DNA of 64,000 nt from an uncultured Gammaproteobacteria bacterium (GTDB lineage: Bacteria > Patescibacteriota > Microgenomatia > Levybacterales > GWA1-39-11), in contig CAYVKP010000001.1 in NCBI GenBank assembly GCA_964452165.1, positions 76,110-140,109 on the forward strand, in the 5' to 3' direction. The notes under the pieces were generated by a model that saw only the letters and a program-made list of their open reading frames with translations, was not told the DNA's origin and ran no database searches. Position numbers and translations under genes: made by a program. This document shows, piece by piece, positions 33,099 to 54,346 of the stretch (positions are counted from its first letter, which is position 1; each line of letters opens with the position of its first letter).

Positions 33099-33563
33099 CT
33101 AGAGGCCTGTTTTGTAGTCGATTGGATAGGTTGATAGGTTAACCCCAAAACCGCTCAAGGTTTGTGTAACAGCGTTCTTTATTTGGGTAACATCGTTACT
33201 GCTCAGTCTGTTTGATGCATCGTAAATTTTTGCCGTAAACCTCTTGGTTTTTATATCAAAGTAAACAAAGTAATTGTCTGTTTGAATAGGAAGCTTTGAG
33301 TACCATGGATATTGGGAGTAGATTTTTGCGACCTGGTCGGAAAAGTTTTTATCAGCTGTTTCCTGCGCGTTTTGATTTTGAGGAGACGAGCTTGACGGAA
33401 GCGTCTCGGGAGTCACTTCTATTCTTTGTTTGGCGGCAGGTTTGGCTGTGGGTTTTGCCCCACTTATAAAAACGTAGACCACGAATAGAGTCACTATCGT
33501 TACAACCGATGCCGCTATAAAAATAATTCTTTTTTTGGCGTCCATATTATTGTGTTGTTCCAA
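33099..33563 (-). CDS. hypothetical exported/TM-anchored protein (T4SS-like locus)
   Basis: N-terminal TM helix; no domain recognised. Confidence 0.45.
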   Translation of the reverse strand: MEQHNNMDAKKRIIFIAASVVTIVTLFVVYVFISGAKPTAKPAAKQRIEVTPETLPSSSSPQNQNAQETADKNFSDQVAKIYSQYPWYSKLPIQTDNYFVYFDIKTKRFTAKIYDASNRLSSNDVTQIKNAVTQTLSGFGVNLSTYPIDYKTGL

Positions 33564-34260
33564 ATCCCATAACAGAATACGTTGAAGGACTTGTTAGCAG
33601 GCCTTTAATAGTCCAGGAATCTACAGGATATGAAAGCACTTTCCCCCCGCTTGCAGGTGAGATATTTGCGTCATACGTTTCAAGTGTTCCGTCTCCATGA
33701 GTATTCACGTTTATTGATTTTATTATAGCCGCATGGTCAAATGACCCAATAGTTGTTGATCCGGGGACTGCCTGAAAGAAAATTGCATATCCGGGCTTTG
33801 CTTGGCTAAGAGCAGAGGAGTGGCTACCTGAATAATAGTCCAGGAATTTATATCCTGCATTACCCCGGAAATAGTTCATAAGGTTGACTGCTCCTCCATG
33901 GTTTTGGCGACTGGTCCCCGAGAAACCGGCTAAATTATAGGAATCAATTACAAGATATGTGCACCAATATTTATTGGCAGAACTTGTCCCGGGACTTTGT
34001 GCTGTGGTGTACGAGCCATTGCTGATCTGACTTACCATCTTGTCATATGACCCGTCGTATCCTATCTCAAGCACAGCGCTAATTTTTTCAGTCCAAGAAA
34101 TAACTCCGGAAGAATTCTTGGAGGGTTGGCTTTGAGGATTTCCAATTCGAGTCTCTATGGTGTTGCTGTTTGTTTGAAGTTGCTGTGCCTGGGCCTGTTT
34201 AGCCGATAAAAAAACCAGCCCCAATACGATTAATATAGCTATTCTCTTCATTGTTGGCAA
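33547..34260 (-). CDS. secreted CHAP-domain (Cys/His amidohydrolase) protein, putative peptidoglycan hydrolase
   Basis: Signal peptide; NKYWCTYLVIDSYN (catalytic Cys) and FDHAAII (His) in CHAP-like spacing. Confidence 0.55.
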   Translation of the reverse strand: MPTMKRIAILIVLGLVFLSAKQAQAQQLQTNSNTIETRIGNPQSQPSKNSSGVISWTEKISAVLEIGYDGSYDKMVSQISNGSYTTAQSPGTSSANKYWCTYLVIDSYNLAGFSGTSRQNHGGAVNLMNYFRGNAGYKFLDYYSGSHSSALSQAKPGYAIFFQAVPGSTTIGSFDHAAIIKSINVNTHGDGTLETYDANISPASGGKVLSYPVDSWTIKGLLTSPSTYSVMGFGTTQ

Positions 34261-34709
34261 AAGCTTAAAGGATAAGATTTCCCTGAAAAATCCGGATTTG
34301 CGTAATATGGCGTTGTGATTTCAACGTTTGCTTGGCATGCCGCAGCCTGGCTCATGCCGGTTTTTTCAAGAAATATTTTCTCGGCCTCTTGTCGCAAAGA
34401 CTCAAAGGGAGAACCCGTAATACTTATCATAAAATTATTAAATTTTTCAAAATACATAATTTGATACTTGTTGGGCTCATCAATAATGTACACGTCTCTT
34501 TGTTTGTCGATTTTGGCAGCACCCTTGTAGAAGTTTTTAATAGGCGTACCGGAAAGACTTAGCGTATCGCTTTGTGGAATTGTGGGGGTTGCGTTCACGT
34601 TGTTGGGCTGGTTTGTTTTTGGTTGCTTGATGCTTGACAAGAAAGCAAACAGGATTACTATTCCAAAGAGCGTGACAATAATTGTTGCAACGAATACAAG
34701 CTTTTTCAT
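34248..34709 (-). CDS. hypothetical exported protein
   Basis: Signal/TM N-terminus; no domain recognised. Confidence 0.45.
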   Translation of the reverse strand: MKKLVFVATIIVTLFGIVILFAFLSSIKQPKTNQPNNVNATPTIPQSDTLSLSGTPIKNFYKGAAKIDKQRDVYIIDEPNKYQIMYFEKFNNFMISITGSPFESLRQEAEKIFLEKTGMSQAAACQANVEITTPYYANPDFSGKSYPLSFCQQ

Positions 34710-34713
34710 TTCA

Positions 34714-36918
34714 TTAGTTTATACCACAGGTATCAGCAGGCGTGTACCACGGCTTCCAGTTTGTTCCACCCGCTGACATCTCTGCCATTTTTTTAGTATT
34801 CTCGATGGGGTCTGAGTATTTGGCTACACATGCATCAAGTTTTGCTTGATTTGCAACTGCGCAAGTCGGCGGATTTATCGTGTAATTTGAAAAAGCTCCG
34901 GGACACTGGACGAGCATGTTTATTTGGAAAAGTCCGACACTGTAGTCAGCGGAGACTCCTGTTAGACAGCCCTTATTAAGCGCGGCGGGATTTCCTCCGC
35001 TTTCTCGCTTGCAAATTATAGAGGCTTTGAGGGCTTTTGTCTCATCGTTGCCAAAATATTGCTTTAAGCTCGACACGGCACAAAAATTGGATCCCCCGGA
35101 GCATACGCCGCCGGTTGGGGGAGCCGATTGTCCCGGAGTTGGGCCTGTGGGTGAAGGTGCCGCAGCTTGTGCATACAGGAAGTTCGATATTGATACATCA
35201 TCCTTCGCAGGCTTTAAAGTTAAGGTAAAGCCTTGTTGATTGTCGGTCTCTTTAAGAGACCAGGAGACTTTGTTGGTTGTTGGTTCAAAATGATATACAC
35301 CAGAAGTTGCCTGAAAAGTTGTCCCCTGCGGGATATCATCGTAGACTGTTATTTGCTCAAGAGGGACAGTTGCAATAGATGAATCATAAAAAACTTGCAC
35401 GTTATAGGCAATATCTCCCCCGTTATCAATTATGTCAGGACCAGAGAGCGTAAGCGTGAAGCCGGGAATTGGCGTAAGGCTTTGCTGTCCGGCAGGTCCG
35501 GCGCCTTTGCCATTTTGAGCATTGTTTGATCCACCTCCACCAAGGGGGATAGGTAGGGAGCTACCGGACATAAAAAAGAAAATAAAAATTATTAAAACGA
35601 TAAAAAGAAGAGCCCAGAATAAGGGAGATCGGAGGAGAAACCTTTTTATGAACGATGACGAATTCTGAAGTAGAGAGCGTGCTCGTGCTCCAGGTTGGCG
35701 ACCCTGCTTGGGATTTTTTTTAGGTTGTCTTCGTTCCGCGGCGGGTTGAGATTCGTGTGGGTGTTGTCCGGCGTCTTCTCTTTGGGCGTAGGGTTCTGCA
35801 GGCGCTTCAGTGTGGGAGGCATGTTCGGCTGTTTCATGGGGTGGATTCAGAGGCTCCATGTTTTCATGTGGAACCCGAGTTGCCTCCTCAAGTCTTTCCG
35901 TTGCTTGACTCGTCGGTGGTATGTTGACGACATCTGACGTCTGAACGTGTTCTGTATGAGATTGTTGTGTTGGAGGCACTGTTGGTGCAGGGGGCGCAGT
36001 CGCATGGGTTTCCTCGTGCTCTGGTGTCGATTCGGCAATTTTTTTATCAAGCACGCTTTGCGGGACGGGATAATAACCGTATTTTGCTGCTTCCTCAAGT
36101 TCTCCGAGTGTCGAGGTGGCATAATAGTCTGCCGTTCGTTTACGAATTTCCTGTCTCCCCAAAGCGCTTTTTATTTCTTCAGAGTCTTTTTTATAAGCCT
36201 CGGCTTTTTCGGGAAATCTATCTACGAATTTATTCCAGTGCTTTTCTTCTATCCGTTCTCGTATTTTGCTCCAGTCTTCTTTTGAGTCTTTTTTTCCGGC
36301 AGCAAGTACCCTGTCATGTATTTCATCTCTGACTTTTTTTTGTGTTACCCAATAGTTTGGATCCTTCTCAAGCTTAGTTATTTTTTTTGCTTGCTTGTCG
36401 TAATATTCGGCGTTTTTAGGTTTCTTTTCTCTGAACTCTTTTTCAACCTCATCGTGAAGACTGGGTGCTTCAGGATCTTCCAGGGAACCATGAACGTAAT
36501 CCAGAAACTCTTTGCTTTCATAGTTCTTATCCTTATTATTTTTTAGCCACTCGTCTTTCTTACGTATAGCAATTTTTATGAAATCGTTGTCATATTCCAT
36601 GACCTCATTTTGTTTTCTGAAGAGAAGCATGGGGGCAAAAGCAAAGCCAATTAGGCTACCAGCGCGGCTTCTTGTTGGAGGTTTGTAATCTTCTTGTGGC
36701 GCTTCGGGTTGTTTTGTTCCAGAGCCCAAATAATTTGATATCTCAAATCCCGCCACAACATTTGCTGGTAAGCTAATTCCCGTGCTTTCACTCCATTTGA
36801 CCAGCTCGTGTTCGGATGGAAAACCGGGTAGTCCGTTTCTTTTTTGATAATCTTGCCATTTCGCTATTAAGTTATCTGCTGTTTGGCGGTTGCTTTGTAT
36901 AAACTTTCCTGTATCCAT
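34714..36918 (-). CDS. large bitopic protein: cytoplasmic charged N-terminal region, single TM, extracellular domain ending in a lysozyme-like/SLT-type transglycosylase module
   Basis: C-terminal KRESGGNPAALN ... DYSVGLFQIN resembles the ES...GLMQ core of lytic transglycosylases; TM helix LFWALLFIVLIIFIFFFM. Confidence 0.55.
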   Translation of the reverse strand: MDTGKFIQSNRQTADNLIAKWQDYQKRNGLPGFPSEHELVKWSESTGISLPANVVAGFEISNYLGSGTKQPEAPQEDYKPPTRSRAGSLIGFAFAPMLLFRKQNEVMEYDNDFIKIAIRKKDEWLKNNKDKNYESKEFLDYVHGSLEDPEAPSLHDEVEKEFREKKPKNAEYYDKQAKKITKLEKDPNYWVTQKKVRDEIHDRVLAAGKKDSKEDWSKIRERIEEKHWNKFVDRFPEKAEAYKKDSEEIKSALGRQEIRKRTADYYATSTLGELEEAAKYGYYPVPQSVLDKKIAESTPEHEETHATAPPAPTVPPTQQSHTEHVQTSDVVNIPPTSQATERLEEATRVPHENMEPLNPPHETAEHASHTEAPAEPYAQREDAGQHPHESQPAAERRQPKKNPKQGRQPGARARSLLQNSSSFIKRFLLRSPLFWALLFIVLIIFIFFFMSGSSLPIPLGGGGSNNAQNGKGAGPAGQQSLTPIPGFTLTLSGPDIIDNGGDIAYNVQVFYDSSIATVPLEQITVYDDIPQGTTFQATSGVYHFEPTTNKVSWSLKETDNQQGFTLTLKPAKDDVSISNFLYAQAAAPSPTGPTPGQSAPPTGGVCSGGSNFCAVSSLKQYFGNDETKALKASIICKRESGGNPAALNKGCLTGVSADYSVGLFQINMLVQCPGAFSNYTINPPTCAVANQAKLDACVAKYSDPIENTKKMAEMSAGGTNWKPWYTPADTCGIN

Positions 36919-36931
36919 TGATTTTTACGCC

Positions 36932-39244
36932 TTATGGATTCGGTTGTTGCGGCGGCGTAGGAGCGGCAGGTGAGGCGGGCGTGGTGGGATCCGGAGAATT
37001 AGGAATCTCATGCGGCGCAATTGGTGTTGTTGCCTTAGGAGTAGCCGGGACAGTCTGAGCAGGTTGTGGGGCAGGCGCGACCGGGGCCTGTATCGGAACT
37101 GTCTGTTGTGTGGCCGGGCTTGCTTGAGGCGGGACAGTCTGATTTTGTGGCGCCGGTGTGGCGGGTGTTGGAATAGGCGGAGCAGAATCTACAATTTTAA
37201 TTTCCGTATCTGCTGCGGGAACGCTTGTTCCACTTGGTATTGGCGCAGGCGCAGGTGTCTGTCCGGCTGCTTGCTCGGCAGCAGCCTGAGCGGTTATGCC
37301 GGCTTGATCTTCTCCTTGTTTTATTATGTCTTGAGGTTTTGAAGTGATCAATTCGTATTCTGCGCTTGATGCTATGAACTGAGCGGTTATATGATTTTGT
37401 CCGGCAAAAAGAAGTCCTTCACCAACCTGGGCCGTAACCAAAAATTGTTTCTCGCCTTCTGATAAGAAGAGTGCTTTTGCAAGCGTTTCAACCTCGGACG
37501 AATTTTGTTTCAGGAGAATCTGGATTGAGGAGTTTGAGAGTATCGATTTCCCATAGTCGTTGTTAAGAAAGTCCTCAATGTCCTGCGTAAGCGTTGTCAC
37601 TCCCAGGAAATATTTTCTTGCTCTTTTTGCAATTCCCTGCAGGAAACTCGCCGAATCGGGGTGCTTCATAAGATACCACGCCTCATCGACTACTAGAATT
37701 CTTTTCTTAAGTTTTGTTCTAACACGATTCCAGATAAAGTCTAAGACCACGTGCATGGCAATCGGTCGTAATGCGTCCTCGAGTTGCTTAATAGAAAAAA
37801 CCGTAAGCTGGTTTTTAATATCGTAGTTAGTTTGTTCGTTTAGAAGTCCTGAGAATCCTCCCTTGACATATTTTTCAAGCCTAAAGGAGAGATCTTTGGC
37901 TTCGGGTTCTTCCATGTTGAGAAGAGTTTTATAAAGATCTTCAAGAATTGGCGGCTCGTTTTTATAAGTTGTCGGATCCGGCGTTATCCCCTTTTGCTTG
38001 TAGCAAAGCACAATTGCACGGTCGAGAATCGCTTCTTGGGTTGGGGTCATATCTCCAAGCATGGTCTTTAAGAGTCCATGGAGAGATAAGATTTTAATTC
38101 CAAGCTGGGCGTCTGTCATGTCCTCAGAGATTAGGGCAAAAGGGTTTATCTTGACCTCTGAGCTTTTTGAGAAATTTATATACTCGCCATCCAGTGCGTG
38201 ACAAAGTGCTTTGTACTCGTCCTCCGGATCAATTATCAAAATCTCGGCATCAAACATCATCTGGCGAAGAAGTTCGAGCTTAACAAGAAAAGATTTTCCT
38301 GCACCGGATTTTCCAAAGACAACTTCATTTGCGTTTTCAAAAGAAAATCTGTCAACTATTGCCAGGGAATTGTTTATTGTGTTTATTCCATACAGAATTC
38401 CATTCGGGTGAGAAATTTCGTATGAAGTAAAAGGAAAAGTTGACGCGAGTGAGGTCGTGTCCATGTTGCGCGTTATAAAGAGTTTGTCGGTTCCTGAGGG
38501 AAGAGTGGTTTTAAATCCTTCCTCCATTTGCAAAGTTGCCGGACGAATCAAAAGAAGGTTCGATGCAAGAAGCGATGAGAGTTCTTTTGTTTTTGAATCA
38601 AGCGCTTCAACTGTATCTGCTGCAAGAGTTATATAAAGCCCAAACTGAAAAAAGCGCTCTAACCCCCGAGCAAGCTCTTCGCGAAGGGCAATAGCGTCTT
38701 CAAGGGCTGCGTTTATCTTGGGATCCGGCTCAAGACCTTGCTCCGCATCAGACTGAAGCGTTGCTTCCATTTCTGATATCTTACGACGCAAATTTGACAA
38801 GACGTCTTTGCTCTCAACGGGATAAGCGAACATAGATATATTCATCGTCTCTTTGTAATCGATTAGTATTGAAAGCCAATTAGGTGAAACTTGACGAGGA
38901 TAATCAACAACAAAGAAGGTTCTGAAAAATTTATCCCCAACGCGAATATTTTTAAAATCTACCTCAACGGAGGAGGGGGAAATAAGATCAACAACCGAGA
39001 CTGACCCTTGTTTTAAAGCAGTATAGCCCTTACTTGGCCCCGTAGGTTTTGCCGCAACTTTGCCTTTCGGCGCCGCGCGTCCTACTGCGGTTTTTGCCGC
39101 AGGGGTGGCGGTCGAGGGGGGTGTGCTTGTTTGGGTCTGTGGCGCTGGTGGCACCTGAGGTTGAGGCTCGTTTTGCCCCGCCTGCTTAATAACAGGTGTC
39201 GATTCTAGAACTTGCGGTTGTTTTTTTTTGCCAAGACCTAACAT
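36932..39244 (-). CDS. VirB4/TrbE/CagE-family T4SS ATPase with Pro/Thr/Ala-rich N- and C-terminal extensions
   Basis: Walker A FGKSGAGKSF, Walker B ILVVDEAWYL, VirB4-type N-domain (TFFVVDYPRQVSPNWLSIL). Confidence 0.85.
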   Translation of the reverse strand: MLGLGKKKQPQVLESTPVIKQAGQNEPQPQVPPAPQTQTSTPPSTATPAAKTAVGRAAPKGKVAAKPTGPSKGYTALKQGSVSVVDLISPSSVEVDFKNIRVGDKFFRTFFVVDYPRQVSPNWLSILIDYKETMNISMFAYPVESKDVLSNLRRKISEMEATLQSDAEQGLEPDPKINAALEDAIALREELARGLERFFQFGLYITLAADTVEALDSKTKELSSLLASNLLLIRPATLQMEEGFKTTLPSGTDKLFITRNMDTTSLASTFPFTSYEISHPNGILYGINTINNSLAIVDRFSFENANEVVFGKSGAGKSFLVKLELLRQMMFDAEILIIDPEDEYKALCHALDGEYINFSKSSEVKINPFALISEDMTDAQLGIKILSLHGLLKTMLGDMTPTQEAILDRAIVLCYKQKGITPDPTTYKNEPPILEDLYKTLLNMEEPEAKDLSFRLEKYVKGGFSGLLNEQTNYDIKNQLTVFSIKQLEDALRPIAMHVVLDFIWNRVRTKLKKRILVVDEAWYLMKHPDSASFLQGIAKRARKYFLGVTTLTQDIEDFLNNDYGKSILSNSSIQILLKQNSSEVETLAKALFLSEGEKQFLVTAQVGEGLLFAGQNHITAQFIASSAEYELITSKPQDIIKQGEDQAGITAQAAAEQAAGQTPAPAPIPSGTSVPAADTEIKIVDSAPPIPTPATPAPQNQTVPPQASPATQQTVPIQAPVAPAPQPAQTVPATPKATTPIAPHEIPNSPDPTTPASPAAPTPPQQPNP

Positions 39245-39245
39245 A

Positions 39246-39914
39246 TTACAAGACTACGTTTTTTATATCGTCAGCGTTCCAATCAAGCGTTACAAACTCT
39301 TGATTTAACATTTCATAGAATAATTTAATAAGCTCATCGGTCCCAAGGGGTCTGTGAGTTAGTCCCATTCTTTCAACCTGGGTAAGTATATTATTTCTCT
39401 TTGAGATTAGAGCGGACTTTATCCTGTCATTGAGCGGTAGTTTCTTTCCCGGAGTAGCAGGGGCTCCCGGCTGCTGTGTAGGCCCAATATTTGTAGGCCC
39501 AAGCTCAAGCTGAGAAAATGGAATAACGATATAAACTTTCTTATCAAGAAGCCCCTCCCCCTTTATTAGATCCGCAATAAAATCTCTATAAAGAGTTAGT
39601 TGTTCGGATATCTTTGGGTTTTTCACTTTGGAAATCTTGTCTTCGAGCAGCTTGATGTAGTTGCCCATGTCAATTCGTCTTGAAACTATAAGTATCTGAA
39701 TGTAGAAAGAAAGAGAGTTAAGTAGGGACATGTATCCATATATTCTGGCTGTCTGTTCATCGCTTGAAAGCAGAAAGAAATTAACCGATGAGATTTCCGC
39801 AACCATGCAAGTGTTGCCTCCCTTGAAAAAAATCATGTCGTCTGAGATATCAACAATTTCCGTAAAATCCTGAGTTGTTGAATGAATTTTTGATTTTGCC
39901 ATATTATTCACCAA
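39246..39914 (-). CDS. hypothetical T4SS-associated protein immediately upstream of VirB4
   Basis: Tightly coupled to VirB4 (2-nt gap); no domain recognised. Confidence 0.45.
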   Translation of the reverse strand: MVNNMAKSKIHSTTQDFTEIVDISDDMIFFKGGNTCMVAEISSVNFFLLSSDEQTARIYGYMSLLNSLSFYIQILIVSRRIDMGNYIKLLEDKISKVKNPKISEQLTLYRDFIADLIKGEGLLDKKVYIVIPFSQLELGPTNIGPTQQPGAPATPGKKLPLNDRIKSALISKRNNILTQVERMGLTHRPLGTDELIKLFYEMLNQEFVTLDWNADDIKNVVL

Positions 39915-39938: not shown

Positions 39939-41222
39939 TTAGACTGCGGCTACCGCCGGCCCTTGGCCGCCAAAAAGCTCTCGTCTAAGTTTCTCACGTG
40001 AATCAACAGATGTTACTTCAATCGGATTAAATATTGATCCATCGAGCGTTATTTGAATAATTTGAAATTCGTGTTGTTTTTGCGGATCCTCAAAGTAGAC
40101 TTTATATGTACCATTTGATAGTGGTGTAGCAGATGCAAATTGTCCAAGAGAGTTAGTCTTGAAAGCTCTTACCGGAATATTATTCGTATCAACAATCTCA
40201 ACCAGGATGTTCGGCATGGTTTTCCCACGTGGATCTCGCACAATGCCAAGAACTACATTTCCAATGTCGGGAAGACTCGGGAAGCCGGCTGCAAGGCTTG
40301 CCCCCGGAGCAACATACTTTACGCTTTCGGTTTGTTTTTGTTCCTGCCCCTGAGAAGGGGTGAACACTTGTTCTTCGGTCTTGCTCTTATCGAGCTCATA
40401 TCCCACAACTTTCTTGGCTAGGGTATCTTTCTCGGCTTGTGCCTGACTGAGTTGACCCTGAAGTTCTTTCACCTTGCCGGTCAGGTCCTCATTTGGAGCA
40501 GCGGTTTTAGTAGTCTCTTCTATTTTAGCCTTCCTGATACTGTTTGCACCGGTTTCTATGACTTTTTGGGCGACGGCTTGTTTTTCGCTAATAACCCCTC
40601 TTACCTGATCTTCCGTTTGTCTGATCATCTGAATAGGGTCGCTCGCTTTTTCTATCTCTTGGTGAAGAAGTCTTGCGGTATTTGTCCTTGGAGTATCCGC
40701 GGCAATTGGCGTAAGGGGACGAATATTAGCGCTTGTTGGATTCTCAAAGAAGGATTTAATAGTTTTAAGTTGTGCTATTTCGGAATCGTCTGCACGTACA
40801 TTCGAGTTTCTAAGCCTTGAGAGGAGAAGTGTTTTTTTGTCGTTGGCAGGCGTTGTGGCGGTTGTTGTTGCGGTCTTTGAAGTAACCCGAGGCTTGACAA
40901 CAATCCTTAAGGCTTCAAAAGAGGCCAGGTTTGCACCCTTTTTGTGGTAAATGTATCTATTTTCAGAAGGAATAGTTTTGGCAAAATTTGAGATCATAAC
41001 GTCCATCGGGCGACCTTCAATGGGTATAAAAGTAAGCGCGACACCAATTCCTGCAAAAAGCATCATCAGGGGTACTTTAATAAAGAAGTTAAGGTGTAGG
41101 ACGAAAGCAACCGTGGTAAGAATCCCAAAACCCAGAAGATATAAGAATTGTTTTACCGTAACACTTCCGATCAGCTTAAACTTAAAACCCGTAACATCCT
41201 GAGGAATGGGATGATTCTCCAT
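39939..41222 (-). CDS. membrane protein with PrgI/VirB3-like N-terminal 2-TM module, coiled-coil middle and beta-rich C-terminal domain
   Basis: FKLIGSVTVKQFLYLLGFGILTTVAFVL...MMLFAGIGVALTFIPIEGRP resembles PrgI-family VirB3 analogs. Confidence 0.45.
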   Translation of the reverse strand: MENHPIPQDVTGFKFKLIGSVTVKQFLYLLGFGILTTVAFVLHLNFFIKVPLMMLFAGIGVALTFIPIEGRPMDVMISNFAKTIPSENRYIYHKKGANLASFEALRIVVKPRVTSKTATTTATTPANDKKTLLLSRLRNSNVRADDSEIAQLKTIKSFFENPTSANIRPLTPIAADTPRTNTARLLHQEIEKASDPIQMIRQTEDQVRGVISEKQAVAQKVIETGANSIRKAKIEETTKTAAPNEDLTGKVKELQGQLSQAQAEKDTLAKKVVGYELDKSKTEEQVFTPSQGQEQKQTESVKYVAPGASLAAGFPSLPDIGNVVLGIVRDPRGKTMPNILVEIVDTNNIPVRAFKTNSLGQFASATPLSNGTYKVYFEDPQKQHEFQIIQITLDGSIFNPIEVTSVDSREKLRRELFGGQGPAVAAV

Positions 41223-44179: not shown

Positions 44180-44602
44180 TTAAATCTGGCTGTCTGGAGC
44201 TTTTTGGAGAACCGGAATCTTGAGATGTGAGAGGCTTCCAAGTCCTAGCGCTGAGATTACGACGTTTACAATAACAAAAGATAGTGCAATTACAATGAGC
44301 CCAATGATTGCGGCGATAATGTGATTTCTCGCATCTGCTACTCTTTGTTTGTCTCCTCCTGATGTGATCCATTGAAATGCTCCAATAACTATGTAAAGAA
44401 GTGCTGCCAAGAATGCTACGACAATAACAAAAGCTACCGCAAAAGAGACGATAGAACCGATGCTTGTATCAGGTGTGATGATTGTCCCTCCGGGAGGGCT
44501 TTTAATAGACGCATTTAAAACGGCCGGGTCGCCCTGTGCGAGAACACCCTGAGCAAGTGCCAGAAAAGGTAGAGCTGAAAGCGCAATTTGTAATTTCTTC
44601 AT
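44180..44602 (-). CDS. TrbC/VirB2-like pilin with signal peptide (paralog B)
   Basis: Signal peptide MKKLQIALSALPFLALAQGVLA; core GAFQWITSGGDKQRVADARNHIIAAIIGLIVIALSFVIV. Confidence 0.6.
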   Translation of the reverse strand: MKKLQIALSALPFLALAQGVLAQGDPAVLNASIKSPPGGTIITPDTSIGSIVSFAVAFVIVVAFLAALLYIVIGAFQWITSGGDKQRVADARNHIIAAIIGLIVIALSFVIVNVVISALGLGSLSHLKIPVLQKAPDSQI

Positions 44603-46123: not shown

Positions 46124-46442
46124 CACCTACGGCAGATGTTATAAAGTTTACTATAACCAAAGATAACGCCATGATTATAATCCCCAAAATTGAATAGACG
46201 ATAATTCTTCTTGCATGGTCAAGTTTTTCCTTATCTCCCTTAGATTGTAACCAGTAAAAGCCGCCATAAGTCATATAAATTAAAGAAAGAATTACTCCAA
46301 TGACCATTGCAACCTCAACGAATTTTGTGGCAAGTGAGGAGATTGTGAATTCCGCACCATGTGGAATTCCTGCAGGCGGGTGAATTTCAATTGATGACGT
46401 GCCATCTCCGGTTGGAACTTTCAAAGAAATAAGACCTCTCAT
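46098..46442 (-). CDS. TrbC/VirB2-like mini-pilin (paralog C)
   Basis: Core GGFYWLQSKGDKEKLDHARRIIVYSILGIIIMALSLVIV. Confidence 0.6.
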   Translation of the reverse strand: MRGLISLKVPTGDGTSSIEIHPPAGIPHGAEFTISSLATKFVEVAMVIGVILSLIYMTYGGFYWLQSKGDKEKLDHARRIIVYSILGIIIMALSLVIVNFITSAVGVTNGAVTH

Positions 46443-48127
46443 CTTGACAATCCTGGAATCTTAAGAATATCGACTCCAACTATCTCAAGTATAACAATCG
46501 AAAGAATTATAAACAACAATCCTACTATCGCCGCGGTTATTGTTTCCCTGGCTCCTGCAAGTTTTTCCTTATCTCCCCGAGATATCATAAGTAAGTAACC
46601 CGAGTAGATGATTATGATGATTGCTCCAAATCCTGCCAATGTTAGTATGAAGCCAAACATAGTTTCAATAAAACCCTTAAATGAACTGACATCAATGTTT
46701 CCTATAGCCGTATTTATTGATTTACAGTTAAGTGTCGAATTTTTGGTACGAATAGGATTACTTCCGTTTCCGCAAGGGAGTCCTACGGCCAGATCCTTCT
46801 TGTTAAGAGCTGCAAGCTCTTTCAGAAATGCCTTGTATTCTTCTCCTTGGGGATCCTTTCCGTCCTGAGGGTTTGTACAAGATCCCCCCGCTTTATTAGC
46901 AGGGCTTACGCCGCAAGTTATTTGATAGTATGTAAATCCGCCCTGACATGTATTAATAAAGGTATTATCGATGTCGTTTATTGTCCTAACGCCGAATTTT
47001 CCTACGTCTATAGCTTTTTGTATAGGGTAAATGATTGGCCTGAGCGCTTGTTTCGCAATATCAACTGCAAAATCTTTAGGGTGGGTGAAATCGTGTGCTA
47101 AGTCGCCAATCACACCAGTAACTTTTTTAACTACGTGCAGGGGATTTGGATCAAACCCAAGAAGTCCTCCTCCTCCGCCTCCACCACCACCCGTATCACC
47201 GCTTTTTAAGGCACCGCCCAGAGTATCGGGTTCATTTATCTGTTCTTTTATTAAAATCGTGTATACACCGGCGTCAGTAATTCCTCCAAAGGGTTGAGCT
47301 TGTCCAATGTCTATACACCCCTCACTGTCGTAGCCGCCTTCTCCTCCCTGAACCAGTACTTGATAATTATTCCTTTTTTCTCCTCCTCCTTTGGATCGGC
47401 CTGAAATAGTGACCTTGAAGGTGTTTATTGGAGCGACAAGGCTTTGATTTGGCTCAACGCTTACGGTGGGATAATATTTGGTCACATAGAATCCACCATT
47501 CTTAACAGGTTGGTATTTATCGCCTTGAGCGGCTTTTTTGACGACGCTGAAATTATACATTTGTCCACCCTGAAACCAATTCTCCTTATCTGGTCCACAT
47601 CCCTCGATCTTTAAATTATCTCCGTCTCCACAAACTCTGAAGCGTACATCTCCCTCTTCGTCTGCTTGACTCCCATCATCCGTTAATACGCTGTCGTCGG
47701 ATATCTTGCCCGTTCCAAAACAGTTATCGTCTCCCGTACAAATGAAATATTTTGTTCCCGGATTTAAATTGTGGAATGTAATATCTACGCAGGGTAGTGA
47801 TTCATCAATGCTCAAGAAGTTGGGGTTAGTTGTAAAGTCGCTATCGCCTTGGGTATCCTGTGCAAGTGCCAAGTCGGCCGACGTAAGAGGTATTCCATTT
47901 CCACAAGGGCTTGTTGGGGCCGCGGTTGGCGAGGGGGTAGTTTGGCCCGCGGGATTTTGTGCAGGTGTTTGGGGAGTGGTGTTTTGACCGGAGCCATTGG
48001 GTGACGTGGTTTGACCAAGGGGGTTGGGAGTAGTTTGAGCATAGCCGGTGCCTGAAAAAGAAGAGAAAAAGACAAAAAGAATTGAGGATACAAAAATGAA
48101 CTGTAGAATAACTCTCAAGATCTTCAC
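46439..48127 (-). CDS. secreted Pro/Thr- and Gly-rich surface protein carrying a C-terminal VirB2-like pilin module (paralog D)
   Basis: Signal peptide, poly-Gly tract GGGGGGGGGLLG, many Cys, C-terminus YSGYLLMISRGDKEKLAGARETITAAIVGLLFIILSIVIL. Confidence 0.6.
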   Translation of the reverse strand: MKILRVILQFIFVSSILFVFFSSFSGTGYAQTTPNPLGQTTSPNGSGQNTTPQTPAQNPAGQTTPSPTAAPTSPCGNGIPLTSADLALAQDTQGDSDFTTNPNFLSIDESLPCVDITFHNLNPGTKYFICTGDDNCFGTGKISDDSVLTDDGSQADEEGDVRFRVCGDGDNLKIEGCGPDKENWFQGGQMYNFSVVKKAAQGDKYQPVKNGGFYVTKYYPTVSVEPNQSLVAPINTFKVTISGRSKGGGEKRNNYQVLVQGGEGGYDSEGCIDIGQAQPFGGITDAGVYTILIKEQINEPDTLGGALKSGDTGGGGGGGGGLLGFDPNPLHVVKKVTGVIGDLAHDFTHPKDFAVDIAKQALRPIIYPIQKAIDVGKFGVRTINDIDNTFINTCQGGFTYYQITCGVSPANKAGGSCTNPQDGKDPQGEEYKAFLKELAALNKKDLAVGLPCGNGSNPIRTKNSTLNCKSINTAIGNIDVSSFKGFIETMFGFILTLAGFGAIIIIIYSGYLLMISRGDKEKLAGARETITAAIVGLLFIILSIVILEIVGVDILKIPGLSR

Positions 48128-48168: not shown

Positions 48169-49470
48169 TTATTTACTAAATTTATAGCCCCGGCCTTTTA
48201 CGGTTTGAATGAAACGGGGATTCTCAGGATCATCTTCGATTTTTCGACGCAGTCTATAAATTATTTGATCGAGTGCTTGGTCCGTGACTCCTTCCTGGGT
48301 TTGGTTATCCTTCCAGACCCCTGTGATTATCTCGTCTTTCTCGGAAATTTTGTCTGCGTTTGTCATAAGGAATTTTAACAGTCTAAACTCTGAGGGGGTA
48401 AGTTTCTCGGTTAAGTTTTCTTGTCCTTTCATGATCTCATTTTTCTCAGGATCATATTTTAATTCGCCAGCAACCTCTTTCGGTCGCTTGTTAACGAACG
48501 AAACAAATAAGGGAATCGTTATTTTCCCCCCGCTTGTCAGATTTAATTTCTCAAGATTTTCATTTTTCGTTTCGCTTCTTATGTCTTTTTGTTCTTCGGG
48601 AGTCAGGAAATTCCATATTTCAAAAAGAGCAGCCTTTACCTGAGTGTTAGAGATTAAAAATTCCTCTAAATCTTTAGATCTATCTTCTGCAAGAACCGCC
48701 TCGTAAGAAACTTTTGCAAGCTTTCCATGTCCACCCGTAAGTGTTTCAACCTCATTTCTCACTTTTTCAGAAGCTTTTTTACCGGTAATCTCCTCAAGGT
48801 GAGAAAATCTGAAGGTAAGGCCAACGGGGTCTTTAATAGGTAGAAAGATTGTGTTGCCCACAAGGAGTTCATAAAATTCAGAGTAGAGCGGGAGTTCAAG
48901 TGTGTCTTCAATTGGACGGCTTACTGCAAAAACAGCAAGGAAATTGTATTTAACCCGGTTTCTTAAAATTCTTAAGTTTAGGAAAAACTTAGAATCCACA
49001 TTCGGAATATAATCTTCGAATCGGTCGAAAAGAAAAACCAAAAAGTATCCCTTGTCTTTGACTAGAAAATCTACAGTCTTTTTAAGCGCCTGAAAGAGTA
49101 TCAGCTCATCTTGAAAATTTACAACTTCTGCCAGATACTCGTTGACCGTATTTTGTGCTTCAGTTAGTCTTCTCTCGCCTAGGGAATAGGAGACTGAGAT
49201 CAGGATGAACTTTACAATCTCAAACAAACTTCTGCCCCGGACTTCCGAGAAGTCCATATATATAAAGTGAAAGCTAGGCTCATCTGTACCCAGGTGAAGT
49301 TCTCGTACCTTCCTGTTATATGGTAGTAGACGCAAGGCGTTACTTTTTCCAACACCGGGGATTCCAACCACCTGGCAAGATGCGCCCGTGCGTAGAATTT
49401 TGATCATTTCTGATATTTCTGCTTCACGCGTGTTGGGTGGGTAGAGAGCCTCAAAATGGTTGGGTTCCAT
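48169..49470 (-). CDS. P-loop NTPase fused to a C-terminal OmpR/PhoB-type winged-helix DNA-binding domain
   Basis: Walker A GIPGVGKSN. C-terminus TPSEFRLLKFLMTNADKISEKDEIITGVW...RLRRKIEDDPENPRFIQTVKGRGYKF (trans_reg_C). Confidence 0.65.
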   Translation of the reverse strand: MEPNHFEALYPPNTREAEISEMIKILRTGASCQVVGIPGVGKSNALRLLPYNRKVRELHLGTDEPSFHFIYMDFSEVRGRSLFEIVKFILISVSYSLGERRLTEAQNTVNEYLAEVVNFQDELILFQALKKTVDFLVKDKGYFLVFLFDRFEDYIPNVDSKFFLNLRILRNRVKYNFLAVFAVSRPIEDTLELPLYSEFYELLVGNTIFLPIKDPVGLTFRFSHLEEITGKKASEKVRNEVETLTGGHGKLAKVSYEAVLAEDRSKDLEEFLISNTQVKAALFEIWNFLTPEEQKDIRSETKNENLEKLNLTSGGKITIPLFVSFVNKRPKEVAGELKYDPEKNEIMKGQENLTEKLTPSEFRLLKFLMTNADKISEKDEIITGVWKDNQTQEGVTDQALDQIIYRLRRKIEDDPENPRFIQTVKGRGYKFSK

Positions 49471-49573: not shown

Positions 49574-52500
49574 TTGCCGCATATGAATGAGAATTTGACA
49601 CCTAACAAACCTGTAGCGTATCCTTTAAATAGGCCTATGGCTGAAAATACAGCAGATAATTTACCCGCAACTCCTCCTACAGAGGTGAAAGGTTCTGATG
49701 AGGAGCAAGTAGTCGTTGTTGAATCAAGGGATAATGTTCAAAACGGCAAGACTGAGGATAGGGGGACCAACGGATCCAAAAAGGACGAGGAAACACGTAC
49801 TCAAAGGGAGACACGACAAGGCAGAAACAAGCCTACTCCTAAAGAGGCTGAGGAAATCCTAGAAACCTATAAAAAGATCTACGAAAGAGAGTTCAAAAAG
49901 AAGTACGAAGACTTAGACATAGAAACAAGGGAGGCTATTGAAAAAAGGATCGAAGAAGGTAAGCCACCTAACCCTATGGGTGGAGCAAACGAACACGAAG
50001 ACCATGATGAAGAACACGAGGAGCATGGTGGCGGAGGAAATGGGCCTAGAAACACTTATGAAAGAGCCAGGGATATTATGCGGGAATCAAAATATGGCGC
50101 TCAATATACAGCCTTTGTTAATGCTCTTAGAAATGGTGATATGCGTTCTGCATCAAGTCTCCATGATGAAGCGGCGCACGAACTATCTACAGAGCTCACC
50201 GCTGTTGAAGAAAGAATAATAGATGCTCAGAATAATCCTGACCCGGCAGATATTGTGAAAAGAAACGACATAACTAACCTTTTAGGTGAAATGGCTGGAA
50301 TAAAAAGAGAAATTACACCTGCTCCCCCGGTCGATAAACTTCACATAAAGGCTGAAGAACTCATAAGCAAAAGAGAAAGAGGAGAAGAGTGGACCGCTCA
50401 TGACAGAGAAGAAGTTATAGAGTACATAGAAGAAATGAATCCGGCCGGGTATCAAGTAGACGAAGGCGATATTGATTTTATTGCAAGAGACGATGAGTTT
50501 TCTGAAAGATATCTTGACCTTCTCTTAAGTTTGCCTGAAAGCCAACCTAGATCTGGTTACCATTTGGGCTTTCACGAAGGAAATAATCTTGAAGCTTTCA
50601 TGCACAAAGTAAAAGAACACGATCCAAAACGCCTTCAAAGATATTCAGATGAGAGAGGAATGCGTCAGAACTTTCACGAGATGCGCCGTTACATGCTTGT
50701 TGGAAATATCCGTGACTTTTCAACTGTGGCAAGAGATATTCCCGATACTTATATACAAGCAGCAACAGATTATGTAGGTGTGAACTCTGTTCAAAGATTT
50801 TATGATACGGTTTTCAAAGAAGCCATGGCAAAAAAACAGACAATCTCGCCTCAAGACTTCAAGCATATAGAAGAAAGACTCGAAAAATTATTCCGAGATG
50901 CTAATGAGTCTGGGGTTTTTAATATTGAACAGAAGGGTGAGGATGGAAATCCTCTCAGAGATGAACATGGAAATATTGCCACCAGGGCACTTCGCGAATG
51001 GGAAATAAATAGAGCAATTAATGTGGGTAGAAACTTCAGCGCAATCAAGCTTAGACTTCCAGAGCTAATATCTGTAGGGGAAATTCCCAGCAACTTTGGA
51101 ACCCCATCGGTCCCTGAAACTTTTGTCTCATTTGACTATGAAAGTGCCGTAAGATTTCTTAATCCATTAAGGTTCTTGGGCTCAAAGTTTGGAATAGGAG
51201 CAGTCAGGGGAGGCCAGGAATATCTTAAAAAACTTTTCATAGAGATTGATGCACAAAAAAATAGCCAAGCTAAATTTACCAAGCTTTTTGGTATTGATCG
51301 CAAGAATTATGAGCGATCAGCCCCCTTTGGTAATACCAGCTTTGACTCGGGCTGGCGTATACCTCAGGCAAACCTTAACGTCTTTAAAATTATGGCAAGA
51401 GTAAGAGACGAGAAAATATATGACGAGGTTGACAATAAAGAAATGATACTTAAAGTTTATGATCCAACACAAGCCGAGCAGGAAGTTGAGGCAGGTTATT
51501 ATATAGATCATCAGACAAGATACATCAGAGAGCTTAGAAAAAGAGGACTTAAAGACCCACAAATAAGCGCACAGTATGATCACAATGCAGCCATAAAACA
51601 AGCCGTCGAGAAATTACCCTTTTATCGAGGATTTTTGGCTTCTTACGGTAATGTTCCTATTGAAGCAAAAGTAGAGGCATGGAAGAAAATTGCCGAAGAT
51701 ATGCCAAACCAAGTTATGATGATTTTAAAGGGTAATGCCAGCTTTGATGCTTTAAAAGCGTCTCAGGGAATGACTGAAGAAAAAATGGAAACCCTTCAAA
51801 GAAAGCTTGCGTTATATCAAGAGCTGAGACTGCAAGCCCAAATGAGAGAAACTAAGCTTCGTGATGATGGTAGTCCAATTGATCCCACAGCCGGTATAAC
51901 CGAAAAAGATCCTAATGACCCCGAGGGTCACAGAAGAATCATCAGAAACGTAACTCTCAATGAAATAATTACCAGCAATCCAATTCATGGGGACAACAGC
52001 TTGTCACCTGACGAATTAAGATTCATTGATGCGATGAAAACGTGGATGGGACACGATATGCAGGAGGGTGGCGGCACCGTCTACAAAAATCTTGCCGAGG
52101 TTAAGTGGCCAATAAACCCTATAAATGAAGACTTTGCATATGAAACCGCTGACTATACCAGAACTGGAGCTGAGGTATTCAGACGCCGAATTGGAGGAGA
52201 TGCAGTAGCGCTTTATCAAGCCGCTGAAGAGGTAATTCCTATCTTGCGAAATCCCAATATGGCGTTTGAGACTTACATTGAGCATATGCAAAAAGCAGCT
52301 GATGCAATAGATACTCCTCATGGATATGAGGCAGCGCAAAACATGCTTTTCACCTTCCACAAGACCAAGCTGGATTTTACAAGAAAAGACAAAATATGGG
52401 AAAGCTTACCCGGAATCGATGAAGCGGCATCATATTTTGGAGTACCGGTTTCTGAGGCTCAGAGATGGTTTGGAAAAAATGGGGCAGCCTATGATACCTT

Positions 52501-52714
52501 CCAGACACGTGCGTTAATAGAGCAGTTGGTAGGTGCAGGTCTTATAAGACGTCACAAGGAGATTGGCGAAGATAAGCCTCAAATTGACAAGTTAAGAAAA
52601 GCGTTAAGAGCCACACTCCCTGACATTTTAGTAAAGAGAATTCCAATAGGGGGCATATTTATTCTTTTGATAATTATCTCGGAGTTTACAAAGAGGGCGC
52701 TTAAAGAAAAATAA
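49574..52714 (+). CDS. giant (1046 aa) mostly alpha-helical hypothetical protein with a His/Glu-rich patch and a C-terminal TM anchor
   Basis: HEDHDEEHEEHGGGGNG; C-terminal IPIGGIFILLIIISEF; no domain recognised. Confidence 0.6.
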   Translation: MPHMNENLTPNKPVAYPLNRPMAENTADNLPATPPTEVKGSDEEQVVVVESRDNVQNGKTEDRGTNGSKKDEETRTQRETRQGRNKPTPKEAEEILETYKKIYEREFKKKYEDLDIETREAIEKRIEEGKPPNPMGGANEHEDHDEEHEEHGGGGNGPRNTYERARDIMRESKYGAQYTAFVNALRNGDMRSASSLHDEAAHELSTELTAVEERIIDAQNNPDPADIVKRNDITNLLGEMAGIKREITPAPPVDKLHIKAEELISKRERGEEWTAHDREEVIEYIEEMNPAGYQVDEGDIDFIARDDEFSERYLDLLLSLPESQPRSGYHLGFHEGNNLEAFMHKVKEHDPKRLQRYSDERGMRQNFHEMRRYMLVGNIRDFSTVARDIPDTYIQAATDYVGVNSVQRFYDTVFKEAMAKKQTISPQDFKHIEERLEKLFRDANESGVFNIEQKGEDGNPLRDEHGNIATRALREWEINRAINVGRNFSAIKLRLPELISVGEIPSNFGTPSVPETFVSFDYESAVRFLNPLRFLGSKFGIGAVRGGQEYLKKLFIEIDAQKNSQAKFTKLFGIDRKNYERSAPFGNTSFDSGWRIPQANLNVFKIMARVRDEKIYDEVDNKEMILKVYDPTQAEQEVEAGYYIDHQTRYIRELRKRGLKDPQISAQYDHNAAIKQAVEKLPFYRGFLASYGNVPIEAKVEAWKKIAEDMPNQVMMILKGNASFDALKASQGMTEEKMETLQRKLALYQELRLQAQMRETKLRDDGSPIDPTAGITEKDPNDPEGHRRIIRNVTLNEIITSNPIHGDNSLSPDELRFIDAMKTWMGHDMQEGGGTVYKNLAEVKWPINPINEDFAYETADYTRTGAEVFRRRIGGDAVALYQAAEEVIPILRNPNMAFETYIEHMQKAADAIDTPHGYEAAQNMLFTFHKTKLDFTRKDKIWESLPGIDEAASYFGVPVSEAQRWFGKNGAAYDTFQTRALIEQLVGAGLIRRHKEIGEDKPQIDKLRKALRATLPDILVKRIPIGGIFILLIIISEFTKRALKEK

Positions 52715-54346
52715 TTATCCCCCAATTACTGAACGGAAGAGACCTCTCCATATTCCAATAGGTTGAGCATGACCACTTTTGTCGTATGTGTATCCAAGTC
52801 CGGCTGTGTAGCCTCTTCCGAATTGTCCAATAATCCCCGGACCTGCCGAAAGAGATCTACCGATACCCGATGAATACTTGAAGTCAGGAGACTTAAGAGC
52901 ATCTTTTACCATGACTGCTGCCTCAGGCGCCATTAATATTATTCCTAGGCCAATTATTGATCCAAAACGCGACGGATCAGTAAGATCTCCAACTAAAGGA
53001 GGGATAAATGGCGTTACTCCACCAGGAGTATGTCCGCTAAAGCCGTTAATAAAAGTTTGCCCTAGAAGAAATAAGGTTATTGTTGCGGGAAAGACAGCAA
53101 GATTTGAGAGCATTCCTCTGAAAAAAGCTCCGAGTCCGGATCTACCCGGAATAAGGCCGCTGGCGATATAAAAAGGGGAGAAAACTACGGTTACCAAGAC
53201 TGAGATGTAGCATTTAATTAGCTGGAACCATATTCGCAGAAGCGCTTGGAAGATAGCAATGATAATTACAATATATGCAATAAGACCGGCTATAAGACCG
53301 ATAAGTTTATTCCCGAGTATTGCTCCACCAACTCCACCAATTGCTCCTCCAATCAGGCTCGCTTTTGTAAAAAATGCGCCCACAAGAGGTAGCGGTATTC
53401 CTTTGCCTATCTGTTGGCCAATCAAACCACCAATAAGTGTACCTATTATTCCACCTAAGACCCTACCCAGTGTTCCATCAAATATAGATGCCGTAATTCC
53501 CGATATGTTTTTTGCGACTCCAAAAGCAATTCCGCTTACTCCCCCAATTCCTCCGGCAGCCCCAAAAGGATTGGTTGAAAGAGAGTTTGAAGGGTCAATT
53601 CCGGCTTGAGAAAAGAGTGACATTATAAGGTAGATTGAGACATACATCATGTCTATTAGAAATCCTGCAATTGCATACGAGAAAGTTACAAAAATAATAG
53701 CCATTATAATTTTTGGTATCTGATTTTGAAGTGTCATGACAGTTCTTGGATCAATTTTAATTCTGAACATTATTCCAAGTCCCACGATTACAAAAAGAAT
53801 TACAAAAAGAAGATATGTAACATTTCTAAAAACCTGCCAGAGCTTGAGAGTAGGCAGGAGAGAATTAAAACCTATGCTTCCCTCTCTTTGATTTTTTGCT
53901 TGTCCTGCCGCAGCCGGAGTATCTCCTGTGTTTTGTGCATACGTCCTTTTTGCTATGCCAAAATTTGATGCCACATCAGCAACATAATCGTGAGTCGATA
54001 TTGGAATGTAAAAAGTTTCAGCGATTAAATTACCTACAAGTCCTATTGCGCCCCCACCACCTTCAACAAAACCTATCTTTTTAGTTTTAGGGTCTATTCC
54101 AAGACATTTTCCGTCGGGATTTATGGGGTCAATGCCACTTAATTGGCAGGAAATTGCCGCTCCTACCTCTATAAAAACGCTTTGAGTATATGTATGAAAG
54201 TCCTGAGGAACGTTAGGATTTGTATTTAGATAATTTTGATTGGGCTGCGTTGGTGTTGTACTTTGAGCATATATTTTAGGAACGAACAGAAGTGCGAGCA
54301 AAAGAAAAAAGAGAATTGATAAAATCTTAAGCTTCATGGACAGCAC
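52715..54346 (-). CDS. VirB6/TrbL-like polytopic membrane protein with signal peptide and Gly-rich TM helices
   Basis: Signal peptide, then at least 6 TM with GxxxG-rich helices (GGIIGTLIGGLIGQQIGKGIP ...). Size and topology match VirB6/TrbL. Confidence 0.55.
   Translation of the reverse strand: MLSMKLKILSILFFLLLALLFVPKIYAQSTTPTQPNQNYLNTNPNVPQDFHTYTQSVFIEVGAAISCQLSGIDPINPDGKCLGIDPKTKKIGFVEGGGGAIGLVGNLIAETFYIPISTHDYVADVASNFGIAKRTYAQNTGDTPAAAGQAKNQREGSIGFNSLLPTLKLWQVFRNVTYLLFVILFVIVGLGIMFRIKIDPRTVMTLQNQIPKIIMAIIFVTFSYAIAGFLIDMMYVSIYLIMSLFSQAGIDPSNSLSTNPFGAAGGIGGVSGIAFGVAKNISGITASIFDGTLGRVLGGIIGTLIGGLIGQQIGKGIPLPLVGAFFTKASLIGGAIGGVGGAILGNKLIGLIAGLIAYIVIIIAIFQALLRIWFQLIKCYISVLVTVVFSPFYIASGLIPGRSGLGAFFRGMLSNLAVFPATITLFLLGQTFINGFSGHTPGGVTPFIPPLVGDLTDPSRFGSIIGLGIILMAPEAAVMVKDALKSPDFKYSSGIGRSLSAGPGIIGQFGRGYTAGLGYTYDKSGHAQPIGIWRGLFRSVIGG

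Follow-up and report, generated by a model that had tools for sequence, protein, structure and literature searches.

A probable Patescibacteria-type type IV secretion system beside dnaN and dnaA in a Candidatus Levybacteria genome

We analysed a 64,000-nt stretch of DNA (the window) and, within it, a locus at positions 33099-54346, numbered along the whole stretch. From the sequence and its relatives, we put at roughly 85% the probability that this locus is a chromosomal, vertically inherited type IV secretion system (T4SS) typical of Patescibacteria (the Candidate Phyla Radiation, CPR), here of Candidatus Levybacteria (class Microgenomatia). Its predicted membrane platform, made up of a VirB4 ATPase, a TrsD-like N-domain, a PrgI/VirB3-like protein and a VirB6/TrbL-like protein, appears to be of monoderm (MPF-FATA) ancestry. 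An initial annotation of the same DNA had proposed a dedicated, non-conjugative T4SS-like apparatus of a small-genome episymbiont, and this proposal was supported by all of the tests run here and by two published studies (PMC10633639, PMC12102498). The locus had also been described as mostly co-directional, which it is: 15 of its 17 open reading frames (ORFs) lie on the minus strand and two on the plus strand. A function or family could be assigned to 10 of the 17, namely VirB4, the TrsD-like protein, the PrgI/VirB3-like protein, four pilin modules, the VirB6/TrbL-like protein, a protein with an SLT_3 domain and a regulator, so that the earlier statement that most of the proteins have no recognisable domain was too strong.

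To place the VirB4-family ATPase (770 aa; 36932..39244, minus strand), it was compared with profile and structure databases. Pfam recognised it as P-loop_TraG (7.7e-34) and AAA_10 (1.7e-14), with a core at about residues 74-640 and the Walker A motif GKSGAGKS at residue 311. It scored 407.9 bits, against a cut-off of 325, with the NCBIfam family NF045971 (conju_CD1110, 'VirB4-like conjugal transfer ATPase, CD1110 family'). The closest solved structure was 4ag5, the VirB4 of the Gram-positive Thermoanaerobacter (E 1.3e-46), whereas the Gram-negative R388 TrwK was matched at just E 6e-5. Homologues were plentiful (5265 found), and among the best 120 all of those with a named source came from Levybacteria or Patescibacteria, at 66-100% identity. 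The NF045971 and 4ag5 matches relate this VirB4 to the monoderm MPF-FATA class. The core is flanked by disordered tails rich in Pro, Thr and Ala, as the initial annotation had noted for Pro and Thr; Pro accounts for 17% of residues 1-75 and 25% of residues 640-770, compared with 4% of the core.

Missing from the earlier list of components was a TrsD-like protein of 222 aa (39246..39914, minus strand), a separately encoded VirB4 N-terminal domain whose gene lies 1 bp upstream of virB4. It matched positions 98-232 of the NCBIfam VirB4_plasma profile at 9.1e-7 and, weakly, the TrsD family NF041427 at 3.7e-4, both below the curated cut-offs; a sequence search with it against the PDB gave no match. 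Since the 222-aa protein covers the N-terminal part of the VirB4_plasma model (98-232) and VirB4 begins at position 293 of the same model, VirB4 is split at this locus. Such a split is known for TrsD in pGO1-type systems and in Patescibacteria (PMC12102498).

The gene upstream encodes the PrgI/VirB3-like membrane protein (427 aa; 39939..41222, minus strand), which scored 28.6 bits with Pfam PrgI against a gathering threshold (GA) of 27. A transmembrane (TM) scan gave an N-terminal hydrophobic hairpin and a long linker, followed by a C-terminal beta-sandwich-like domain that resembles CarboxypepD_reg at 27 bits, below the GA of 32.3. The earlier description of a PrgI/VirB3-like protein extended by a beta-domain was supported. 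The remaining platform component is the VirB6/TrbL-like polytopic protein (543 aa, annotated start Met4; 52715..54346, minus strand), encoded about 13 kb from virB4. It has a signal-like N-terminus, 6-8 TM helices by TM scan and Gly-rich loops. The window protein itself had no Pfam match, but Pfam TrbL/VirB6 (PF04610) was matched by 3 of its 35 orthologues at E <= 0.01, and the two of these scanned singly reached 32 bits against a GA of 25.9. When an AlphaFold2 (AF2) model of the protein (pLDDT 66.8) was compared with the PDB by Foldseek, nothing was found at E <= 0.001; chains of R388 TrwI/VirB6 were listed at a non-significant E of 2-7 and were treated as suggestive at most. Nor did a profile search of PDB sequences give a match. 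The VirB6/TrbL-like assignment made by the initial annotation thus stands as a prediction reached through the orthologues only, and not through a Pfam match of the protein's own.

To determine how widely this arrangement is shared, one genome per species was scanned, which gave 80 related loci (L001-L080) from Levybacteria, Gottesmanbacteria, Chisholmbacteria and Woykebacteria. TrsD was present next to virB4 in 74 of these, PrgI in 70, dnaN in 67 and dnaA in 62. The shared order runs from the VirB6-like gene through a gene of the 1046-aa protein family (on the opposite strand), the regulator, the long pilin, the pilins, a variable slot, PrgI, TrsD and VirB4 to a hydrolase slot, dnaN and dnaA. 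In every locus mapped, dnaN and dnaA were found downstream of virB4, and the convergent arrangement of the virB4 operon and dnaN was identical. The recurrence of the same gene order in about 60-70 of the 80 related Microgenomatia genomes marks this as an inherited chromosomal locus and not as a mobile element or island. We also observed that many public records of metagenome-assembled genomes (MAGs) titled 'uncultured Gammaproteobacteria', and one titled 'Nevskiaceae', carry a Levybacteria-type virB4-dnaN-dnaA locus with VirB4 identities of 55-85%; the titles of the MAGs behind L001, L003, L009-L013 and many others look like mislabels.

In the window, the genes from prgI to the end of the locus are separated by gaps of -17 to +24 bp, spacers short enough to suggest a single operon. 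Gene spacing also places the pilin genes in two additional tight groups. The stop of the last gene lies 1 bp from that of the convergent dnaN (31994..33097, plus strand; Pfam DNA_pol3_beta), just past which lies dnaA (30440..31861, plus strand; Pfam Bac_DnaA 6.5e-64); both are context and not parts of the machine. Three DnaA-box-like 9-mers, each with one mismatch, fall within 54 bp of the dnaA-dnaN spacer (31900-31953), a perfect TTATCCACA is found at 30460-30468, just inside the 5' end of dnaA, and the cumulative GC skew of the window is lowest at 30-32 kb. The spacer is therefore the probable oriC, and the locus would border the replication origin. On the far side, the locus is followed by genes for a DUF5667 protein, NrdR and ribonucleotide reductase. 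No break in GC content was seen at the locus borders. Because the DnaA boxes and the skew minimum place the origin at about 31.9 kb, we infer that the T4SS operons to its right (33099-48127, minus strand) are transcribed head-on to the rightward fork, if the origin is placed correctly. This orientation sits oddly with the idea, put forward in PMC12102498, that the position provides gene dosage for high expression, and it might be linked to the fast evolution of several of the locus genes.

An array of VirB2-like pilins lies between the platform genes. With Pfam T4SS_pilin (PF18895, GA 26.6 bits) as the threshold, three short proteins were recognised, all encoded on the minus strand: one of 102 aa with two TM helices (43813..44121; 29.9 bits, and TrbC at 0.0081), one of 140 aa with a signal peptide and two TM helices (44180..44602; 35.7 bits) and one of 114 aa (46098..46442; 29.1 bits). 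The start of the last overlaps by 4 bp the stop of the gene for a long pilin-module protein of 562 aa (46439..48127, minus strand), which scored 21.1 bits (E 3.3e-4), below the GA. The four pilin modules of the initial annotation thus comprise three above the threshold and a fourth, at the C-terminus of the 562-aa protein, that falls below it but aligns through an S-x-G-D...R motif common to all four. The other modules are 22-34% identical to the first. In the 562-aa protein, a signal peptide and an extracytoplasmic domain of about 450 aa, Gly-rich and with 12 Cys, precede the pilin module at residues 481-547. Its gene was found in 36-39 related loci, and we regard the protein as a candidate minor or tip pilin or adhesin. 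The array is interrupted by a gene on the opposite strand for a polytopic membrane protein of 479 aa with about 10-12 TM helices (44684..46123, plus strand), the 3' end of which overlaps a pilin gene by 26 bp. This protein had no Pfam, NCBIfam or PDB match and is accessory; it was found in only 5 of the 80 related loci (L001, L007, L034, L035 and L050).

The initial annotation had named two murein hydrolases as VirB1 analogues. One of them, a bitopic cell-wall hydrolase of 734 aa (34714..36918, minus strand), was recognised directly, with 38.2 bits for Pfam SLT_3 against a GA of 27. Its N-terminal half (430 aa) is charged and cytoplasmic; there follow a TM helix at residues 433-451, an external beta domain and a C-terminal SLT_3 lysozyme-like domain, which carries the motifs RESGG at residue 638 and GLFQIN at residue 662. 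Homologues were present in 28 of the 80 loci, and its domains predict a VirB1 analogue. The other is a secreted peptidase of the papain fold (CHAP/NlpC-P60 superfamily) with 237 aa (33547..34260, minus strand), in which Cys100, His176 and Asn199 are invariant. We counted a protein as CHAP if it matched the PF05257 profile or had the CHAP fold with a Cys-His catalytic pair; this one belongs there by fold comparison and through its orthologues, not by a direct profile match. It is a predicted second VirB1 analogue.

These hydrolases share the slot between virB4 and dnaN with two small bitopic proteins. One, of 153 aa (34248..34709, minus strand), carries a TM helix at its N-terminus, followed by about 100 aa that form an external domain; its orthologues in six loci share invariant Cys125 and Cys151, and its family profile had no match in the PDB. 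The other, of 154 aa (33099..33563, minus strand; bitopic by TM scan), is encoded by the last gene of the operon, had no Pfam match and has one orthologue among the 80 loci. No profile match to a VirB8-like protein (NTF2 fold, PrgL/TraM type) was found, and the two small proteins are candidates for this component by topology alone. Across the related loci the slot ranges from 64 bp to 6.1 kb, and the hydrolase domains among 163 ORFs that it holds in the relatives were Peptidase_M23 (14), CHAP (8), SLT_3 (5), Peptidase_C39_2 (3), SLT (1) and YkuD (1). Ig-like domains (Big_5, DUF11) also occur in it.

Immediately upstream of the pilin genes lies the gene for a regulator of 433 aa (48169..49470, minus strand) that combines a P-loop NTPase with an OmpR/PhoB-type winged helix. 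Pfam matched Trans_reg_C at 1.9e-22 and AAA_16 at 0.027, and the Walker A motif GIPGVGKS was found at residue 36, in agreement with the ATPase-winged-helix regulator described before. Of the 36 loci with a gene for the 562-aa pilin, 28 have the regulator directly upstream of their pilin array (L003, L006, L012-L016, L019, L020, L024 and others). No P-loop/OmpR regulator of this kind came up in a text search of the main text of PMC12102498. When the locus was scanned for promoters and terminators, no excess over shuffled sequences was found (39 against 35.4 expected; 22 against 18.6). The best sigma-70-like match (TTGACA, 18 nt, TATCAT) lies at 48134-48163 on the minus strand, in the 41-bp spacer between the regulator and the 562-aa pilin gene; it was not counted as evidence in the analysis.

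Two large proteins of the locus are among those without an assignment. The first is a protein of 705 aa (41316..43433, minus strand), encoded between the pilins and prgI, that is rich in Ala, Glu, Lys and Gly and has a Gly/Ala-rich hydrophobic C-terminus. It had no significant Pfam or PDB match. Its earlier description as a coiled-coil protein was not borne out, as the match to ZapB was weak (0.048) and a crude heptad count gave one short coiled-coil-like stretch. The slot between pilins and prgI measured 94 bp to 6.5 kb in 45 loci. Where it is filled, its products are often long proteins that end in a hydrophobic, Gly/Ala-rich segment, and in L007, L030 and L031 they include distant homologues (21-30% identity) of the 705-aa protein. 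This slot and that between virB4 and dnaN are the two fast-evolving positions in the locus. A protein of 119 aa (43433..43792, minus strand), acidic and soluble by composition and without a Pfam match, is encoded next to it; the stop of its gene shares 1 bp with the start of the 705-aa gene. The second large protein, of 1046 aa, is encoded divergently between the regulator and the VirB6-like gene (49574..52714, plus strand). The initial annotation had called it a secreted or anchored giant. It is anchored, with a single C-terminal TM helix at residues 1018-1036 in the TM scan, but the same scan gave no N-terminal hydrophobic segment or signal peptide, so secretion did not hold; the bulk of this tail-anchored protein is most likely cytoplasmic. 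An exhaustive search at E <= 1e-3 collected 140 cluster representatives, most of them 800-1300 aa long. They form an orphan family, which occupies the same relative position in L042, L043, L052 and L072. No Pfam domain was found in the 42 members tested and the family had no PDB match. The residues R494, W594, R595, D853, D876 and S960 are invariant in the family, and such invariant polar residues hint at an enzyme.

The locus was then set against systems already described. Wang et al. 2023 (Cell; PMC10633639) reported that the T4SS of Southlakia epibionticum (ML1, SEML1_0006-0019) resembles Gram-positive conjugation systems, has no recognisable coupling protein or relaxase and, by Tn-seq, has T4SS genes and a pilin array that are essential for epibiotic growth. 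In a survey of 3,035 genomes, Quinonero-Coronel et al. 2025 (Microb Genom; PMC12102498) detected in 2,407 a VirB4 clade that is specific to Patescibacteria and lies within MPF-FATA. Besides TrsD, PrgI/VirB3 and VirB6, the repertoire in that survey includes arrays of 2-11 VirB2-like pilins, above all in Microgenomatia and Saccharimonadia, with almost no relaxases, and the T4SS adjoins dnaA/dnaN in Microgenomatia and Paceibacteria. A 2025 review (PMC12857230) lists these systems among the newcomers of the T4SS superfamily, and tubular structures, possibly T4SS pili, have been seen at a parasite-host interface (bioRxiv 10.64898/2026.06.21.733656). The window shares with the published Patescibacteria systems (PMC10633639; PMC12102498) a monoderm-type VirB4, the adjacent TrsD-like protein, PrgI/VirB3 and VirB6. 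Further shared features are a divergent VirB2-like pilin array (22-34% identity here, 25% on average in PMC12102498), peptidase and lysozyme genes directly downstream of virB4, the lack of a nearby relaxase or coupling protein and the chromosomal site beside dnaA/dnaN. It differs from the Southlakia system in class, being from Microgenomatia (Levybacteria), and from the published systems in the long C-terminal extension of PrgI. Its P-loop/OmpR-type regulator and its orphan family of about 1000 aa are probable further differences, although no literature search was aimed at the orphan family. VirB6 homologues were scarce in Microgenomatia in PMC12102498, whereas a VirB6/TrbL-like gene is present here; this gene was probably missed in the published survey, lying about 13 kb from virB4 and below the profile thresholds. 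The system itself, the absence of a relaxase and coupling protein near virB4, the pilin arrays and the position at dnaA/dnaN are already known from the 2023 and 2025 papers. Our additions to the published picture are small and consist of the Microgenomatia VirB6-like call, the conserved regulator, the cell-wall-hydrolase slot and the orphan family of about 1000 aa.

With Gram-positive conjugation systems, the locus shares the CD1110-type VirB4, a TrsD-like protein as in pGO1, PrgI, a VirB6/PrgH-type polytopic protein, hydrolases of the SLT and CHAP/NlpC-P60 folds and the lack of an outer-membrane core complex. Unlike them, it has no relaxase, coupling protein or integrase in the window and no recognisable VirB8-like protein of the PrgL/TraM type. 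It also has VirB2-like pilins, which are absent from those systems, and is fixed at the origin instead of on a mobile element. In common with the Agrobacterium VirB/VirD4 system and the Gram-negative MPF-T class are the VirB2-type pilins, the equivalents of VirB3, VirB4 and VirB6 and a VirB1-like lytic transglycosylase. In contrast to MPF-T, no Pfam or NCBIfam match to VirB5, VirB7, VirB9, VirB10 or VirB11 was found among the locus proteins, and the similarity of VirB4 to TrwK is weak. Like Helicobacter ComB and archaeal Ced, the locus has neither a relaxase nor a coupling protein of the VirD4 type. With CedB at 38.9 bits (cut-off 700) and CedD at 23.8 (cut-off 600), no specific sequence relationship was seen.

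The initial annotation had found no VirD4, VirB11, relaxase or integrase in the sequence. To examine this further, ORFs outside the locus were scanned, taking those likeliest to encode mobility functions; this covered every ORF of at least 240 aa and most of the shorter ones. No domain of a relaxase (MOB family), a VirD4/TcpA-type coupling protein, VirB11, VirB8/9/10 or an integrase was found in any ORF scanned in the 64-kb window. What the scan returned outside the locus was sigma-70, topoisomerase IB, RuvABC, MsrA, an ABC transporter, a glycosyltransferase, DnaA, DnaN, NrdR, ribonucleotide reductase and cobalamin adenosyltransferase, and the only VirD4-sized ORFs there encode a glycosyltransferase, ribonucleotide reductase and a prenyltransferase-like protein. 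The window showed no recombinase domain, the sole related fold being that of the topoisomerase IB (5578-6714), which is of the housekeeping type. Apart from short A-rich chance matches, a search for repeats gave no att-like direct repeats flanking the locus. Because no relaxase, coupling protein or VirB11 accompanies the locus, it does not appear to be a conjugation machine. The absence of the coupling protein applies to the 64-kb window only, and VirD4-type homologues occur in 2,918 of 3,035 Patescibacteria genomes, nearly always far from virB4 (PMC12102498). Two proteins encoded elsewhere in the window are of kinds uncommon in bacteria, namely the type IB topoisomerase (5578-6714; Pfam Topoisom_I 7e-41 and Top1B_N_bact) and a SET-domain protein at 2492-2959 (2.4e-14).

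Several explanations of the locus were weighed against the preferred one. One is that it belongs, or until recently belonged, to an integrative and conjugative element (ICE) or some other mobile element and that the matching relaxase, coupling protein and integrase have decayed or are encoded beyond the window. This is very improbable. Against it stand the fixed site beside dnaN/dnaA in most of the 80 genomes, which span several candidate phyla of Microgenomatia, the housekeeping genes on both sides (dnaA and dnaN; NrdR and ribonucleotide reductase), and the lack of an integrase, an att-like repeat or a composition break. In PMC12102498, moreover, relaxases were found near virB4 in only 15 of 109 cases. 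A mobile element was accordingly rejected, with only housekeeping or unrelated functions among the ORFs scanned around the locus (all of at least 240 aa and most of the shorter ones) and no att-like pairs. For a chromosomal T4SS, we favour with moderate confidence a mechanism based on contact through a pilus. The hydrolases would open the peptidoglycan locally, and a VirB4 hexamer, together with the separately encoded N-domain, would dock on PrgI and the VirB6-like protein and pull pilins from the membrane. The extracted VirB2-like pilins would then polymerise into a thin pilus or conduit, possibly with the 562-aa pilin-module protein as its tip or adhesin subunit. This pilus or conduit would touch a host bacterium and carry macromolecules between the episymbiont and its host, and the P-loop/OmpR regulator would control pilin expression. 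Pilus assembly is the only T4SS activity known, from Agrobacterium, that needs VirB4 and does without the coupling protein VirD4. Pilus-based host contact is therefore the most secure functional part of this proposal.

The sequence does not favour either direction of transport for such a pilus or channel, and both export and import are tentative options. In import, host DNA, RNA or other material would be taken up, as DNA is by Helicobacter ComB and archaeal Ced; Patescibacteria are not known to synthesise nucleotides. Import is also consistent with the lack of a coupling protein or relaxase near the locus and with the weak similarity of VirB4 to CedB; import of DNA or other macromolecules was proposed in PMC12102498, and host-RNA feeding together with T4SS-like tubes was described in a 2026 preprint (bioRxiv 10.64898/2026.06.21.733656). 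However, the CedB score lies so far under its 700-bit cut-off that it indicates no specific relationship, the locus encodes no nuclease, nucleic-acid-binding or ComEC-like component, and direct evidence for the direction of transport is lacking for every Patescibacteria T4SS. Uptake is a possible but doubtful reading. Export of effectors onto or into the host, with the fast-evolving 705-aa and 1046-aa proteins as substrates, is comparably uncertain. Wang et al. 2023 suggested that their system 'may instead export proteins' (PMC10633639), and the slot of the 705-aa protein differs between relatives both in what it encodes and in its length, a pattern often seen at effector loci. T4SSs that export proteins normally depend on a coupling protein, however, and none was found in the window. 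Moreover, the C-terminal hydrophobic anchors on both large proteins fit resident membrane proteins better than cargo, and the invariant residues and conserved position of the 1046-aa family look more like those of a machine part or an enzyme. A more specific idea, which we consider rather unlikely, is a machine that works independently of a coupling protein and mainly imports nucleic acids or other macromolecules of the host which the episymbiont is unable to make. Lineage-specific, tail-anchored cytoplasmic proteins, namely the conserved one of about 1000 aa and the variable one of about 700 aa, would replace the substrate receptor and pass cargo to or from the VirB4/VirB6 channel.

A number of points weigh against reading the whole locus as one Patescibacteria-type T4SS. 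No VirB8-like component was identified in it, the VirB6 call depends on orthologues, with a mediocre AF2 model and a non-significant fold search, and the N-terminal domain of the 562-aa protein has no assignable function. The same is true of the 154-, 153-, 705-, 119-, 479- and 1046-aa proteins. Two genes, including the largest, lie on the opposite strand, and the 479-aa one recurs in just 5 of the 80 relatives, so not everything inside 33099-54346 need belong to the machine. As to function, we infer pilus formation, substrate and transport direction alike, and the essentiality data come from Saccharimonadia (PMC10633639), a class other than the Microgenomatia to which Levybacteria belong.

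A large part of bacterial diversity belongs to the Patescibacteria. The T4SS is the leading candidate for the apparatus with which they obtain resources from their hosts, and it is essential in the one species tested. The window adds a further clean, contiguous example from Microgenomatia, a class with no cultured, genetically tractable member, and leaves the known picture unchanged. Within this picture, the exchange of hydrolase domains downstream of virB4 fits an adaptation of the machine to the cell's own wall or to different hosts, and the conserved P-loop/OmpR regulator beside the pilin genes could be a switch for expression upon host contact.

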